Virus record (IMG/VR): IMGVR_UViG_3300035498_000371
Location: 1-64,000 of that record
Length of the DNA stretch: 64,000 bases
Direction: 5' to 3' (one strand)
Origin: a virus
Lineage: Duplodnaviria > Caudoviricetes
The position numbers and the translations under genes are program-made. Positions 8,678 to 64,000 of the stretch are shown in pieces (position 1 is the stretch's first letter; each line of letters starts with the position of its first letter). The notes under the pieces were generated by a model that had not been told where the DNA came from, did not search any database, and saw only the letters and a program-made list of their open reading frames with translations.

Positions 8678-9097
8678 AAACGAACTTGCCCCATTACAAT
8701 TAATTTTGTGATGAAAATCTTTTGAATTGCTGGGAAGTGCTAAGAGCTCGGGTGCTCATTATTATACATGAGAATCGAAAGATAGAAACAAAGTACCGAG
8801 ATGATCTATGGTGAAATAAAAGCTTCATATAGTGGCAATATATGAAGTCCTAAGGATTGGAACAATGTGCAATCAGCAGCTAAGACTTTTAGTAATAAAG
8901 TAAAGTTCAACGACTATCCCCATATGGGACGTGAAATTCGTCTATAGGAGTACGGCCTAAGTAGGTAGGTGAGAACCCTTTAAATGGAAGTGGAAGAGTG
9001 CTTGCAAAAGCATAATGATATAGTCTCAACATTCGGAGAAAAACCGAAGAAGTTCATAAGAGAACTGCATAGATTAACGACCTATGTGAAGACATTG
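8678..9097 (+). ncRNA. Group I intron in gyrB (420 nt, no endonuclease ORF)
   Basis: Exon ends in U with a P1 partner gccc; core elements gaattgctgggaa, aatcagcagc, gttcaacgacta, gatatagtct; terminal G. Removal restores RYKGLG|EMPPKQL. Confidence 0.9.
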
Positions 9098-16596: not shown

Positions 16597-17331
16597 ATGT
16601 TTATGTATAAAGAAAGACTTGAAACTGAACGTATGATTTATGAAGTAATGGATATTCTTGATAAGTCTACAGGATGCGATAATAAATCATTTTGGATGGA
16701 TAAACTAGGAGGTATGTCGGATACTCAATTTAAAGCGTATATCTCAAAACCATTCCCTTTCTTCTACCAGGTTGGGGCGTTTAAGGAACCATCAATGAAT
16801 GATATTATCAAAGCTTTAGATCATATTGGAGTTCCATTATTGGAAGAAGTTTATATGCCATTTAAGTATAAAGACAAAGATGGTAATCCAGTAAAATCTC
16901 AGAAATGTCTTGTTATTTATCCATGCGATAAACGAATGAAACAGATTATTACTAAGAAAAATAAAGTAAGCTTAGACAACAGTATGAGAGATATGAGAAC
17001 AGGACAATTAACTGGAGCTTCTAAGGGAGGACGAAACAGCGATCATGAAGTTGAGGCTGCTACATTATCTGGATTGGATAATTTACTTAAGGAATTATCT
17101 AGACCTAGAGGCGATGCTATGGTAGATAAAGAAATTATGAATAATACCATTAAAACTCTTGGGCAGGTATCGTTAGCAGATTTACCAGATGATCCTACAG
17201 ATTCTCTTGGAAAAAATAATTTGTCAATGATGTTTATTGGCGCTCAGTTATATACGAATCTTGTTAATGAAGATTATTTACTTCCATATACATTGAAAAT
17301 GAGAGATAAAAAAGTAGAACGTGTTGATTAA
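16597..17331 (+). CDS. RNA polymerase beta extreme C-terminal fragment (probable small virion-RNAP subunit)
   Basis: RTGQLTGASKGGRNSDHEVEA..GLDNLLKEL..RGD aligns with RpoB TQQP..GGQRFGEMEV..L.E..KSD. Confidence 0.75.
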   Translation: MFMYKERLETERMIYEVMDILDKSTGCDNKSFWMDKLGGMSDTQFKAYISKPFPFFYQVGAFKEPSMNDIIKALDHIGVPLLEEVYMPFKYKDKDGNPVKSQKCLVIYPCDKRMKQIITKKNKVSLDNSMRDMRTGQLTGASKGGRNSDHEVEAATLSGLDNLLKELSRPRGDAMVDKEIMNNTIKTLGQVSLADLPDDPTDSLGKNNLSMMFIGAQLYTNLVNEDYLLPYTLKMRDKKVERVD

Positions 17332-17409: not shown

Positions 17410-18231
17410 ATGATATCTGGAATAGATTATGATAAAATATATGAAAGTAATGGGTATGGAAAATATAAAATACTTAGGGAAGTTGAACCTAGAATGTATG
17501 GATCATATAAAGCTAGAATGGTTGAAGTTTTATTTCTTCAGACTGGGTATATTGCAACTGTTAAACTGGCAGTTGCTACAGGAAGTCATGCTATTAGAGA
17601 TCCATATTATCCTAAAGTATGTGGAGTTGGATATATGGGAGATACTCATATGGGAAATAAGAAAATATATAAATGCTGGAATGCTATGATTGCCAGGTGT
17701 TATAATCCTGCAACTCCTTGGTATAATTTATATGGAGGTATTGGTATTACTGTATGTGATAGATGGTTATGCTATGAAAATTTTGCTAATGATGTAAAAG
17801 ATCTTCCTGGATATGAAGATTACATAAATAAACCTGGATATGCATTAGATAAAGATATATTACAATCTGGGATTCCTCATAATCAGAAAGTATATTCAAA
17901 AGAAACTTGTTGTTTCATTCCTATAGCAGATAACCATTGTGAAGTTGTTGAACGTAATAGTGGAGATTCATTGATTGGAGTTCGTGAAGTTTCTGAAGGT
18001 AAATTCACTGCTAGGGTTACTCATAATGGAAAAGAACAACATCTTGGGACATTCGATGCTCCTGAATATGCTGCGACAATATTTGATTATTATGCCAGAT
18101 TGTATAATCATAAAGCTCTTAATAATTTAGATGTAGATATTGGAGTCTCATTACAGCATAGGATTGGATGTAATACTGTTCCTATTTGCAAGAAAATTAT
18201 GTGTAAAACTGTAAAAAATGAAAAATTGTAA
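17410..18231 (+). CDS. Free-standing HNH-like homing endonuclease with C-terminal AP2 domain
   Basis: WNAMIARCY..YGGIGITVCDRW..F..D, LDKD, YSKETCCF; AP2-like FTARVTHNGKEQHLGTF; GAGGTG RBS before 17410. Confidence 0.8.
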   Translation: MISGIDYDKIYESNGYGKYKILREVEPRMYGSYKARMVEVLFLQTGYIATVKLAVATGSHAIRDPYYPKVCGVGYMGDTHMGNKKIYKCWNAMIARCYNPATPWYNLYGGIGITVCDRWLCYENFANDVKDLPGYEDYINKPGYALDKDILQSGIPHNQKVYSKETCCFIPIADNHCEVVERNSGDSLIGVREVSEGKFTARVTHNGKEQHLGTFDAPEYAATIFDYYARLYNHKALNNLDVDIGVSLQHRIGCNTVPICKKIMCKTVKNEKL

Positions 18232-18261
18232 TATTTTACAACACTAAAAACTTTTTGGTAA

Positions 18262-18510
18262 TTAGGTGGTGGCGGGTGTCAACCGGCACGGCGGAGCAAT
18301 CACCATGGGACAACCATCACTACGACTAGGCCTTCGGCCATTATAATGTCGTATACGCGCTCTCGCGCAGAACTGGCCATGGCATGTGTTTCCCTCCCTC
18401 TTCGAGGGAGGGCTAATTTGCACTAATTAGTGCGCATTGATTTATATTAGGGGACGCCGGAAAGGATCACCCTATCGGTTTGAAAATCGACCAGAAATCC
18501 ATTATTTTTT
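18262..18510 (+). ncRNA. Unclassified GC-rich structured RNA candidate
   Basis: Several perfect hairpins plus long-range pairing; AACT-N6-TA motif at 18249-18260 and a T tract near 18505. Confidence 0.6.
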
Positions 18511-18567
18511 GTGCAACTTTCTATTTGATTATATATTATAATCATACAGAAAGGAGATTTATAAATT

Positions 18568-19062
18568 ATGAAATCAGAAGATATTGAACTATATAGACCA
18601 TATCCCAGTCAGGGATATGGTTATTTTAAAGTAACAGGAATAGATTATTCCAAAAGCAAAGAAAATCCAACGTTACAAATTGTATTTTATGAAACTGGGT
18701 ATGGGGCAACCATATCCTTCAAACAATTTACTTATGGATTAGCAGAAGATTATCATCAAAAATATCCTGCAGATGTTTTAAAGATAGGATATTCAGACGG
18801 TCTATTTAAATCTGACAATCCAAAGGCATGGAAATTGTGGGTTGATATATTACGCAGATATTGTGATAGAAGCCACCCGCAGTTTGATTACTATGGAGCC
18901 GTATATGATTTATATAATATTAAATGGATTCATTATGGTGAATTCCTTAAGTATTATAATTATAGAGAATATATTGGTAGACCAATAGAAAGATTCGATG
19001 ACCCTGAATTAACAGCTCAAGGAAACACTAAAGTAGTGATGGTAAGCGATTGTGTAAAATAA
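18568..19062 (+). CDS. Truncated/diverged paralogue of the 17410 endonuclease N-terminal region
   Basis: YPSQGYGYFKV..FYETGY..W..IL.R..YG parallels YESNGYGKYKI..FLQTGY..W..MI.R..YG; no HNH or AP2 part. Confidence 0.65.
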   Translation: MKSEDIELYRPYPSQGYGYFKVTGIDYSKSKENPTLQIVFYETGYGATISFKQFTYGLAEDYHQKYPADVLKIGYSDGLFKSDNPKAWKLWVDILRRYCDRSHPQFDYYGAVYDLYNIKWIHYGEFLKYYNYREYIGRPIERFDDPELTAQGNTKVVMVSDCVK

Positions 19063-19297
19063 TACGTATCATAGAACTATATGGTAAGTATACGATCTTG
19101 CCAATCGTACCCATATACATTTACTATTCTTCATTGCTCCCAGATGCCTACAATGGCATCTGGATAGCTTTATTTTTGAGGATTTGGTAGATGAGAAATA
19201 ATACAAAATAAAAGCTTATGAAACTTTATAATAAGATTTGCACAACAAATCATTATAGAAATAGCACTCATAAAATCTATTTTAAGGAGGTGAAAAT

Positions 19298-54496: not shown

Positions 54497-55571
54497 ATTT
54501 GTGTTTAGATATATACGCAACTATATACCCCATGGTTGATTCCATGCATCCCCGTTACAGGGAATGATCAGACTATACGTACATCCTTAGAATACCTAAG
54601 GAGCTGGATTTTTCTTCCGCCATTAGCTTGCGGTTTTACATTAAGGCTTTCGCCGCCCACGCAATGGGCCAGTCGTTAGACGTAATATTAAATTATTGCA
54701 CAATACGAACCATATTTCTATATATTTTCTTTCCTGTCCTATCGATCATATATCCAGCATATGGACCAAATGCTATTTTTCTACCATTACCGACCATATT
54801 CTTTAGACTTATTTCTTCATAACCTATCAAATCGGAAACTTCTGATCTTCCATTACAGACTATTCTATCTTCATCGTCATTATACACTTCATAAATATTG
54901 ACTATTTTTACAGACTTAGCTGGAGAGGATTTTCTATCTTCTCTAAAAGCCTGAGATATATTGTCTGATTGGGTTCCCCATTTTAAATTGGAAACGTGAT
55001 TATTAAGTTTATCGTTATCTTTATGCATAACTACTGGTAGATTATCTGGATTCGGAATGAATGTTTTAGCCACTAATCTATGTATTGATTCATTCTTTCT
55101 ATGCCCATCGTCGCAATCTTCTAATGCTGTTCTCAAATAACCAGAATTGCTTACAGCAGTTCTCATAGTATGACCGTTTTCGTTTATTACAATTCCAGAT
55201 TCATTTATTTTATATTTTCCATTATATCCTGGTATTTCTTTCATCATGATTCTATTTCCTCCTTAAACTTTTGATAGAGCAAAATGGCTATATCATATTA
55301 TTTAAGAAGTTAATATTATTGTGCGTTATTAATATTTTCGTAACTGCACGTTGGCTTGTTAATAGTAGCTGCAGGATTTAACCATACTACCATCCTTATA
55401 TCTTTTTTCTGCTTTCGCCGCATTCACGCTTACCTTTTGAGTTACGTTGTAGCGATATAAGGCTCTTGACCAATGAGTCGCAGTTTTAACACAGGAGAAC
55501 TAACAGCTTCCGCTATTAGCTGTGGTATTTAAACCGTATTCTTTATATTACTTTATACGGCTTTATTTCTC
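54497..55571 (-). ncRNA. Group I intron in the terminase carrying an HNH endonuclease (boundaries uncertain by 1-3 nt)
   Basis: gtctaacgactg and cgtatagtct (P7 elements); a P6-like stem encloses the HNH ORF; removal restores VERNG-GYG. Confidence 0.8.
54693..55247 (-). CDS. Intron-encoded NUMOD4-HNH homing endonuclease
   Basis: KEIPGYNGKYKINESG; IHRLVAKTFIPNPDNLPVVMHKDNDKLNNHVSNLKW. Confidence 0.9.
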   Translation of the reverse strand: MMKEIPGYNGKYKINESGIVINENGHTMRTAVSNSGYLRTALEDCDDGHRKNESIHRLVAKTFIPNPDNLPVVMHKDNDKLNNHVSNLKWGTQSDNISQAFREDRKSSPAKSVKIVNIYEVYNDDEDRIVCNGRSEVSDLIGYEEISLKNMVGNGRKIAFGPYAGYMIDRTGKKIYRNMVRIVQ

Positions 55572-57878: not shown

Positions 57879-59630
57879 TTATAGTTTAACAATATTAGAA
57901 TAATTCACTGAATCATTATCTAAACGATTCAATCCAATAGACTGTAATGGGAAGTTCTTTAATGAATCACTAATGATTTCTCCAAAGTCTACAAACTCTA
58001 ATACCCATTTTGGTACTGGGCTATCTAACGGTAATGCTATTACATTAACCTTAGAACCAAGAGTTGGAGAATCTAGTAATCTACATAACTTCTCATACTC
58101 TACTGGATAAAGATCTTTAATCTTGCTTACATTCTTCTTAGTAACATCGATCTTGATCTTTATAATAGAATTTCTTTCCTCAAGGTTTATTGCTGGCATA
58201 TCATCATCTCTCATTTCATTATAAATGAGGCACGCTACTATACCATTAATTTCAAGAGGATTCTTACCATACGAACTCATTGCAGCTACATTATCTGGTC
58301 GATAATATTTTGTTTCTCCGTTCATTATGCTATCATAAATACTGTTCTCCATCATAACTAATTTCTTCATAATAGCAATCTGATCAATATTATCTGCATT
58401 CATGATATCTTCGTAAAGAATCTCTTTGAACTCACTCTTAATATCGTCAGGAAGAGTAGATTTATCTATTGGTAATCCTGCTATGGCCAATCTACTACCC
58501 TCCGGTATTATATTTCCTTCCTGTAGCATTTGTAGCGATGCATAATTACGTCTATGGATTGTTAATAATGCTCTTAAGAAATAGAATTCGTTCTTCATCA
58601 CCATTCTGCATTTTGTTCCTTCGACATAGCTTCCTGTAAGTTTTGTATATTCATTCAAATAATCGACTACAAGAGCACTACATACGTAAGCTATGATATT
58701 TATAATTGAATACTTCAAAGAATCCTGAGGGATAAGTTTCGCAGGTTCAATATATCGATCCAGTTCGATAGTTTCATCTGTATAGAAATCATAATCAAGT
58801 CTTTGTTCTACTATCTCGCACATTACTCGTTTTTTATGATCTCCAAACTCATCTGGATCTGCAATATCAACCATATTAAATTTCTCTCTCTTAATCTTCA
58901 TAGGAATATTATAAACTTTATCCAGTACGAATCTATACCATGCGTCGAATGATACAATAGTACTATCTGTATCTACTATACAAACTGCGTCACGCTGCAT
59001 ATACTCTATTCTATCCAGCTTGTCTATATAGAAGTGAGGATAATATACATATTCCTTAATAAGATCTACAAGAATATCTAGTTCTTTTCTTATAGTCTTC
59101 GGTGGTTTATTAGGATTCATAAAGATATTAGGAGTAATCTTTTCCTTACCATCTTTACCCTCCTCGAATAATGGAGCACCGCCGAGATTACTAAGAATCT
59201 TAATAAGAAGATCTGTAACTACTGGAAGATCACAAAACGTATATAGATTATTCTTATAATATAATCTATTAATATCCTCCTGTGGAAGATCTCTTAGATA
59301 CTCCCATACCAAACCCATTTCCTTTTCGGTCGGTATCCACACTGCCATATCAGCAGTATTCATAAGCTTATAAAAACATTCTGCTACTGTAATATCCCTA
59401 TCCAGTATAGCAGAATCCAAACAATGACGATTATCTTTTTCATGCTCAACGTTATTTATAAACGTAATTACTTCATTTAAACTATTGAATTTTATATTAT
59501 TCGCCAATAAGGATTCAAATAAAGTAATACTGCATGATATATAAGATCTACCTTGTCTAGTAACTGCCTCTGCTACATATAGATTATAATACATAGACGT
59601 TGGAGCTCCTAGAACACCGTAAGTTGCGTT
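57879..59630 (-). CDS. Family B DNA polymerase, C-terminal polypeptide, exon 2
   Basis: NATYG (motif B), VTRQGR, VDTDS (motif C), KNE..F, RRNY. Confidence 0.88.
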   Translation of the reverse strand, partial: NATYGVLGAPTSMYYNLYVAEAVTRQGRSYISCSITLFESLLANNIKFNSLNEVITFINNVEHEKDNRHCLDSAILDRDITVAECFYKLMNTADMAVWIPTEKEMGLVWEYLRDLPQEDINRLYYKNNLYTFCDLPVVTDLLIKILSNLGGAPLFEEGKDGKEKITPNIFMNPNKPPKTIRKELDILVDLIKEYVYYPHFYIDKLDRIEYMQRDAVCIVDTDSTIVSFDAWYRFVLDKVYNIPMKIKREKFNMVDIADPDEFGDHKKRVMCEIVEQRLDYDFYTDETIELDRYIEPAKLIPQDSLKYSIINIIAYVCSALVVDYLNEYTKLTGSYVEGTKCRMVMKNEFYFLRALLTIHRRNYASLQMLQEGNIIPEGSRLAIAGLPIDKSTLPDDIKSEFKEILYEDIMNADNIDQIAIMKKLVMMENSIYDSIMNGETKYYRPDNVAAMSSYGKNPLEINGIVACLIYNEMRDDDMPAINLEERNSIIKIKIDVTKKNVSKIKDLYPVEYEKLCRLLDSPTLGSKVNVIALPLDSPVPKWVLEFVDFGEIISDSLKNFPLQSIGLNRLDNDSVNYSNIVKL

Positions 59631-60238
59631 CCGTTAACCTTATTTAATTAAAATAAGCGAGACTATATCTTCATCTTAGTAAGATGCCGTGCGCTTCCAT
59701 TTAAAGGGTTCTCACCTACCAGCATGTAATACTGGCCGTACTCCTGTAGACGAATTTCACGTCCCATATGGGGATAGTCGTTGAACTTCATTTGATATTT
59801 TACCTATATAATTAATAAAATGAATATAAAAATGCGCAACACTCACATGAGCCTATAAATTTATCGTAATAACGATCATAATAAGTTGTAGTATTATATG
59901 AGGCGCATTCATGAGAATCTGGCAGCCATTTCCATTTCTCATTATTTATTATTGCTGGTAGTAATTTATTATTTATTGAACTTTCAATATTATTATTATT
60001 CATAATTATGCCTCCCTTTTAAAATATCAAATATTAGCTGCTGATTAGACATTGTAATCGGATTTTAGCACCTTTAATAACTACGGTTATTATTAAAGGC
60101 TTTTATCTCAGCATGATCCATCTCTCTACTTGTTTCTGACTTTCGTCTCCATATAAATGGCAAGAGAGCATTAGCCTTTCCCAGCAATTCACACAGTAGT
60201 TTTTGCTATGCGTCACCGCATAACCCGCCTAGCCATTA
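59631..60238 (-). ncRNA. Group I intron in polB (608 nt)
   Basis: Exon ends GCU with P1 partner ggcg; gaattgctgggaa, aatcagcagc, gttcaacgacta, aagatatagtct; terminal G. Removal restores EKLNA|NATYG. Confidence 0.9.
59812..60003 (-). pseudogene. Short intron-internal ORF, probable homing-endonuclease remnant
   Basis: GGGAGG RBS; EKWKWLP resembles a NUMOD4 start; located between the Q and R elements. Confidence 0.45.
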
Positions 60239-63086: not shown

Positions 63087-63178
63087 TCATATACCTACAA
63101 GATAAGTTGATCAGAGGACGGGAAACTGTCCTCTGTAAACTTTTACAAATTAATATAACAATCTGGTAATGATGTAGA

Positions 63179-63250
63179 GTTCTGATAGCTCAAAGGGATA
63201 GAGCAAAGTATTTTTATATTTGATAATAGGTCCGAATCCTATTTCAGAAA
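63179..63250 (+). tRNA. Degenerate tRNA-like element (pseudo-tRNA)
   Basis: ttctga/tcagaa acceptor, tagctc..gagc D arm, atagg-tccgaat-cctat T arm; irregular anticodon loop, no CCA. Confidence 0.5.
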
Positions 63251-63254
63251 TTTT

Positions 63255-64000
63255 GCCGTTTATAAAACAGAAGCACCGTTGATTACGGCAAATGCGGTTT
63301 GAGTTGGCAGCCCGATATAGAGGCTGCGTGTTAAGTGAGTTGCAACCGCAATATATTAGGTGCTAGCCGTGGGACTTTCTCACCGTTCGGAATAATACTT
63401 GTGCTATGATGAAGCGGCCGCGAGGATAAGCAGGTGCGCGATGGAAGGCAAAGGATAACACCGAGATGCGCCAACGTAGAGTGCGTCTAGATAATTCGCG
63501 ATAATATTCTAGTTCAATCTAGCCGGTCAGCGTGTCACAGCGCTGATCGGTATTCCTTCGTTTTGCTGAATTCCCCGTTCTAGGCAAACGAAGATCTCCC
63601 ATGTTATACTCTCAATATGAGTACCTGTTAACATGATTGTGCAGAGTTCATCTGCTGCGAAATGAAAACGATTTGGGATGCCCAATGGAATAGCATATTA
63701 GATAAAGAGATCTTCTATGTTCCCAAGTTGGTAGCCGCTTATGCGTATAAGGGCGGTATAATAATAAGGATTGGCGTTGGCTTGAAACGTACAAGCTATG
63801 GGGTGGTTGAAGGAAATACACTGGTAAGTGCCTAGTAAATGTGTGCTAGAGTCAGTAATGAATTTCCTAAGGTTACTAATGACCGCTATTAAGCCGAGAG
63901 TGGTGGATCGGTGATGCCTGCAGGTGAGGATGATGGAGTTGTTGGAAGGGAAAGATGGATTGCGTTGTAATCGGCTGTCTGTGTGTAACCTGCAGGATGC
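63255..64000 (+). ncRNA. Large structured noncoding RNA, GOLLD-like candidate (runs off the window)
   Basis: More than 740 nt without a tracked ORF, raised GC, many hairpins, immediately after a tRNA-like element. Confidence 0.55.

Follow-up and report, generated by a model that had tools for sequence, protein, structure and literature searches.

A single-copy, promoter-headed GC-rich element beside an RNA polymerase gene of an AR9/phiKZ-like jumbo phage: a possible transcription-primed replication origin

The locus described here raises the question of what a GC-rich, non-coding stretch does between two related genes (p1 and p2) of an AT-rich phage genome, and whether it acts as RNA or as DNA. 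It lies in a window of 64 kb (the whole stretch of DNA that was analysed), which is the start of a circular contig of 238.8 kb with 33.9% GC. Split RNA-polymerase (RNAP) subunits, a PhuZ-like tubulin and a UvsX-like recombinase are encoded in the window, and the nearest cultured matches of the subunit encoded from 16597 (33-37%) are in Bacillus phages Goe21 and PBS1 and Staphylococcus phages SA1 and DC4; the source is an uncultured AR9/phiKZ-like jumbo phage. To our knowledge, no origin has been mapped in phiKZ/AR9-like jumbo phages. How these phages start replication without a recognisable primase is an open question (PMC13648698).

The initial annotation of this DNA proposed a new structured RNA or else hairpins acting as DNA, for instance as an origin, and it is the latter reading that proved the better supported of the two. 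The reading ranked first here, tentatively and with rather less than an even chance of being right, is that the element is a single-copy, cis-acting stretch of DNA at which transcription primes replication, an origin of the T4 oriF kind; some role at the level of DNA, whatever its nature, is somewhat probable. Being single, positionally conserved and headed by a promoter, such a DNA element would give tests of R-loop priming a definite target. Were it an RNA instead, it would count among structured RNAs as unusually young and restricted to one lineage.

The island of high GC content was confirmed, with 52.5% GC at 18263-18500 against 33.9% for the genome. It is present in a single copy, and no other long intergenic stretch is richer in GC except in the DGR, whose variable and template repeats lie outside the window at genome 175.8-178.3 kb, with GNA-loop hairpins adjoining the variable repeat. 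Every local helix named in the annotation was found in its place (Table 1). When fold energy was compared with that of dinucleotide shuffles the z score was -3.07 for the + strand and -2.68 for the - strand, and a repeat of the test gave -2.85 and -2.89, respectively. As both strands beat the shuffles about equally, structure exceeds chance, but a strand preference is absent. We discarded a 53-aa minus-strand ORF (18262-18423) that has lost its start codon in three strains (L002, L010 and L042) and in which most changes are non-synonymous. A restriction-site decoy was likewise rejected, palindromes being only marginally enriched (p 0.03-0.06).

Table 1. Features of the element and its flanking genes (window coordinates; strand as +, - or. 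for neither)
Feature	Position	Strand	Evidence or remark
Small virion-RNAP beta-type subunit gene	16597..17331	+	phrog_3233, E 8e-31; synteny
p1, free-standing HNH-family nuclease with C-terminal AP2 DNA-binding domain	17410..18231	+	phrog_2081, E 1e-38
TGTAA-N4-TTACA palindrome	18227..18240	.	Overlaps p1 stop; conserved head; only two exact copies in genome
Late-type promoter motif AACT-N6-TA	18249..18260	+	Motif enriched upstream of genes; AR9 consensus
G-rich start, four GG runs	18265..18276	+	Sole non-coding match to two-tier GG pattern in genome
GCGGAGC DNA mini-hairpin	18291..18297	+	Invariant in strains
Outer tacgac/gtcgta helix round first hairpin	18321..18353	.	2/6 pairs broken in L003
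4-bp stem, C-GAA-G loop (mini-hairpin)	18329..18339	-	Invariant in strains
4-bp stem, C-GAGA-G loop	18357..18368	-	Invariant in strains
9-bp stem, C-GAA-G loop	18392..18412	-	Invariant in strains
14-bp perfect palindrome gcacta/tagtgc	18420..18433	.	Three one-sided changes, all G-U/G-T on + strand
Short AT-rich tract (candidate melting site, from its sequence)	18436..18449	.	Sequence; invariant in strains
T tract	18501..18513	+	Not a canonical intrinsic terminator
Early-type promoter of p2	18529..18542	+	TATATTATA enriched, 14 vs 1.2; AR9 early consensus
p2, paralogue of p1 N-terminal half	18568..19062	+	Without DKD...C...N nuclease core; without AP2 domain

The late-type motif reported at the head of the element is present and credible as a promoter. 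Upstream of this phage's genes AACT-N6-TA was counted 16 times against 8.4 and AACA-N6-TA 25 times against 9.2, with enrichment at a spacer of 6 only, and the late consensus of AR9 is AACA-N6-TA/G (PMC5312081). By the AR9 rule the predicted start site is 18260. The first 30 nt are unusually rich in G (12 G per 30 nt against a mean of 5.1 over 354 motif sites). At the other end, the T tract at which the transcript was said to stop is indeed there, but it is not preceded by a strong hairpin and no terminator was recognised; in the absence of a good terminator a transcript could continue into p2. Since p2 has an early-type promoter of its own, the element appears not to be required for p2 expression.

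Known RNA families did not account for the element. In agreement with the annotation it is not a tRNA, tmRNA or other known RNA: Rfam returned no hit at gathering threshold (best E 0.39 on 24 nt), with tRNA, tmRNA, SRP, RNase P, 6S, HEARO, GOLLD and ROOL among the unmatched families, and ARAGORN was negative. A collection of homologues yielded no relatives beyond strains of the same species. A covariance model of the element found no match in four related genomes (G001-G004) or in all the syntenic loci, BLAST against phages and plasmids gave chance fragments only, and exact-pattern scans of viral, metagenome and genome collections returned either nothing or chance matches confined to the pattern. 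A scan of viral contigs with the head motif produced 25 hits, L118 included, which look like chance or coding matches and added no support.

Variation could be followed in fifteen contigs of the same or very close species, which carry the element in six distinct variants. The gap diverges by 3-6% among strains, against about 5% at four-fold sites of neighbouring genes (17/371 in two strains). None of the 51 proposed pairs changed on both sides, in a set of six close variants with low power. Regarding the long-range pairings proposed earlier, the outer gggtg/caccc helix is invariant, whereas the pairing of the two ccatgg copies was not borne out, being kept in only 64% of cells; in the ccggc arm of L001 one pair breaks and two turn into G-U. 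Among the one-sided stem changes, six leave a G-U pair on the + strand, and the corresponding number for the - strand is two. This lean is the only comparative hint for an RNA, and it is not significant.

A transcript from the element may exist, as the promoter motif is genuine and is conserved in part, and the six one-sided changes leave + strand G-U pairs. Whether such a transcript would act through its fold, as a late structured RNA of about 250 nt peculiar to this lineage, alone or bound to p1 or p2, is a separate matter. In keeping with such an RNA are the late-promoter motif, the T tract, a fold z of about -3, the six-to-two lean and the invariant outer helix, and phiKZ-like phages do make non-coding RNAs (PMC13282480). 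Comparative evidence leaves the proposal unsupported, there being no both-sided changes, no strand preference and no homologue in sister phages that retain p1 and p2, while the element diverges at about the synonymous rate. We therefore regard a structured RNA as unlikely, if not strikingly so.

The strains and relatives compared are able to reveal a conserved RNA, because one was detected about 600 bases away, and the element behaves otherwise. At window 19075-19172 (+) there is an AACT-N6-TA late promoter followed by a hairpin whose 7-nt loop contains UGCC, a pyrimidine-rich linker and a terminator-like stem. This small unit (19086-19172) occurs in nine lineages with RNAP identities as low as 57%, has a fold z of -4 to -9, and 4/6 of its hairpin pairs covary in the six lineages aligned; divergence in the region among strains is 0.4-1.3%. 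No Rfam family matched 19075-19172. From sequence comparison it is a candidate conserved small late RNA, and a stronger non-coding RNA candidate than the GC-rich element.

The hairpins of the element are, by their loops, of a DNA type. The minus-strand C-GAA-G loops described earlier are present, and on the + strand three perfect GC stems end in TTC or TCTC loops, which read C-GAA-G or C-GAGA-G on the - strand. Mini-hairpins of this kind are far more stable as DNA than as RNA and are found at the G4, ssiA and N4 initiation sites, and GCGGAGC is the same heptamer as in the N4 vRNAP promoter hairpin (PMC13037366). Five C-GNA/GNNA-G mini-hairpins occur in the element against 0.69 in shuffles (p<0.002), and such loops close 3/4 of its GC-rich perfect hairpins as opposed to 7/199 elsewhere in the genome. 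No RNA-type stable hairpin (cUUCGg or GNRA) was found on its + strand, which also speaks against a folded RNA. The four mini-hairpins tested (51 nt) are invariant among strains, with 0/51 variable columns against 42/180 in the rest (Fisher p 1.6e-5; circular-shift p 0.004). Pooled over the tracts of relatives, mini-hairpins number 16 against 5.0 expected, and none were found in the tracts of L011, L015 and G001. The enrichment p-values are optimistic, since the hairpin class came from the hint of the earlier reader and the relatives' tracts were picked after inspection.

The RNAP subunit gene upstream of p1 serves as a landmark, and relatives retain an odd non-coding tract beside the same gene. 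Identity of this subunit is 84-85% in L011 and L015 and 80% in G001. The order p1-gap-p2 is retained in L011, L015 and L048 (p1 at 58-61%, p2 orthologues at 40-49%), and in all three the body of the gap is unrelated to the element. What these gaps share with it is the head only, about 45 nt comprising the palindrome, the late-promoter motif and the G-rich start. The promoter motif is exact and in the same place in L015 and L021, has one mismatch in L011 and is imperfect in L048 and G001. The palindrome is also found in L011, L015, L048 and G003, with a longer spacer in G001 and in looser forms in L021, L019 and G002. A scan of all non-coding gaps showed that it marks one gap each in G001 and G003, both at most 2.5 kb from the same RNAP gene. 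G001 is without p1, gap and p2 at this site, and its palindrome, followed by its only canonical G-quadruplex, lies 2.2 kb away; the quadruplex occupies the position that corresponds to the G-rich start. The RNAP gene and a divergently oriented p1-like gene flank a tract in L021, G002 and G003, and the head of this tract is either the same or looser. In G004 the RNAP gene is followed by a hairpin-rich gap, and no palindrome was found in G004. Long AT- or A-rich tracts are seen in L011, L015, G001 and G002, compared with only 14 nt in the element.

This turnover would also be expected of a fast-turnover spacer or a long late 5' leader of p2, with the head as promoter/operator, a replaceable body and acquired REP-like hairpins. 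The bodies are unrelated among sister phages and divergence is near neutral, the whole p1-gap-p2 block is missing at this site in G001, and a transcript could run into p2. Furthermore, the 21-mer of the 9-bp hairpin recurs in unrelated GC-rich contigs, in bacterial-type hairpin clusters, where similarity ends at the hairpin. A mere spacer or leader is nevertheless unlikely, as hairpin stems and loops are invariant where linkers vary, in G001 the tract with head and G-quadruplex persists although p1 and p2 are lacking, p2 is preceded by an early promoter of its own, and the element is single copy, unlike REP families.

The annotation identified the flanking proteins as paralogues, and this was upheld (26% over 137 aa, E 1e-8); according to alignments, both end in a short Met tag. 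In p1 the residues D147-K148-D149, C167 and N175 are invariant, so that the nuclease core looks intact, and its AP2 domain matched AP2/ERF structures (E 4e-8). The model of p2 (pLDDT 80) had no significant match in the PDB, and matches otherwise were only to unnamed or HNH/AP2-like viral proteins. AP2 domains bind DNA. With such a domain in p1, nothing suggests the ribonucleoprotein that had been proposed for the element and its flanking proteins; p1 matches only HNH and AP2, and the element is not conserved with it. In L001 a divergent p2 allele (L001:299-796; 19% nucleotide difference, 80% identity) is embedded in DNA that is otherwise 95-99% identical, which indicates that p2 was exchanged by recombination. 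The element shows no change matching this swap, a further point against an RNA acting with p2.

An origin is ranked first because of the fixed neighbourhood, the single copy, the conserved promoter and G-rich head, the exchangeable body, the DNA-type hairpins and the lack of a detected primase. A search of the genome for primase domains of the DnaG type (Toprim, Toprim_2 and DnaG_N), with positive controls, found no match. Chimalliviruses have no primase, and R-loops have been proposed as their initiation sites (PMC13648698). In a mechanism of this kind, the non-virion RNAP would fire from 18260, the G-rich 5' end would keep the transcript on its template as an R-loop, and trimming by RNase H would leave a primer. 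The C-GNA-G hairpins, as cruciforms or on the unwound strand, could be SSB-free marks at which a helicase or polymerase is loaded. The RNA would count as a primer rather than as a folded product, which would explain why the body is replaceable in sister phages. An R-loop of a + strand transcript would displace the + strand, and the three long GNA hairpins are on the - strand, so the model needs either cruciforms or a leftward fork. More speculatively, p1 and the nuclease-less p2 might bind or nick at the element. A p1-like gene adjoins the tract in seven lineages, and p1 carries the C-terminal tag shared within the phage. The broader proposal, that this is the origin of a primase-less AR9/phiKZ-like clade, with a late-promoter R-loop primer, hairpin loading marks, p1 as domesticated initiator and p2 as regulator, is considered improbable as a whole.

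The closest parallels in working are T4 oriF (ori-uvsY) and oriG, in which a phage promoter likewise precedes a short non-coding stretch (about 100-300 bp) and RNA acts as primer. These two have little sequence likeness to each other, need only a promoter and an unwinding element, and use an R-loop primer (PMC3016281). They differ from the element in having a MotA middle promoter instead of an AR9-type late motif for the phage multisubunit RNAP (assigned by motif only), and the element has a GC-rich body, mini-hairpins, a short AT tract and a putative R-loop. C-GNA-G or C-GNNA-G hairpins are shared with the G4 origin, RSF1010 ssiA and the N4 vRNAP promoter, down to the N4 heptamer GCGGAGC and the ssiA CCGAAGG core (PMC13037366). 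Unlike ssi and N4 sites, the element comes with no detected DnaG-type primase, multisubunit RNAPs that are not N4-like, and no iterons or Rep protein that could be found. On sequence grounds it would resemble a T4-type or ssi-type initiation site in its working, and it is filed in neither family. The structured-looking non-coding stretch beside an HNH gene recalls HEARO/omega-RNA with IscB, but there is no Rfam match, p1 has HNH and AP2 only, and the stretch, located downstream of p1, has not been conserved together with it. REP/RAYT palindromes are similar in being GC-rich short-loop DNA hairpins, with an identical 21-nt hairpin in unrelated contigs; the element differs in its single copy, and the likeness is confined to the hairpin.

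Several observations count against an origin. The promoter is of late type, whereas T4 shuts its origins late, which by analogy would be unfavourable. Three relatives are without mini-hairpins, the AT tract spans no more than 14 nt, L048 and G001 have an imperfect promoter motif, G004 has no palindrome, and the stem changes lean 6 to 2 to G-U on the + strand. Cumulative and four-fold-site skew showed no clear strand-skew switch at the element and no switch of replichore type. A missing switch would still be compatible with an origin if rolling-circle or recombination-dependent replication operates in the phage as well.

In L021, G002 (95.7-96.1 kb) and G003 (159.7-160.0 kb) the RNAP gene has the opposite orientation to the p1-tubulin block, with the tract between them. 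The gene and the block are thus divergent in these relatives and co-oriented in the source phage, and as orientation differs, rearrangement breakpoints fall near the tract. This raises the prospect of another DNA site, such as a pac site, a recombination or inversion site, or a p1/p2 binding-nicking site apart from replication initiation. The DNA-level evidence would fit this equally, and GNA-loop DNA hairpins also serve the DGR of this phage; GRAIL hairpins are known DGR DNA hairpins. A conserved promoter motif and a G-rich, often purine-skewed strand are expected for R-loop priming and are unneeded for pac or recombination, and the contig is circular with no fixed end seen here. Such a site is judged fairly unlikely, and the transcription-primed origin keeps first place.

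Other structured regions were noted in these genomes. Gaps that are strongly structured or rich in GC, and whose sequences are unrelated to the element, occur at L107:2547-3009 (fold z -11, behind an early promoter) and L019:4350-4850. By eye, group I intron-like cores are visible at window 8720-8990, 54540-54690 and 59590-59790, below Rfam gathering thresholds. The second exact TGTAA-N4-TTACA palindrome of the genome is at window 63134-63147, just upstream of the tRNA cluster. About 740 nt of GC-richer non-coding DNA (window 63256-63995, +) separates a degenerate tRNA (63180-63250) from tRNA-Lys (genome 64001-64073); it matches no Rfam family, has homologous segments in G001 (231122-231672, E about 1e-6) and is a candidate large structured RNA.
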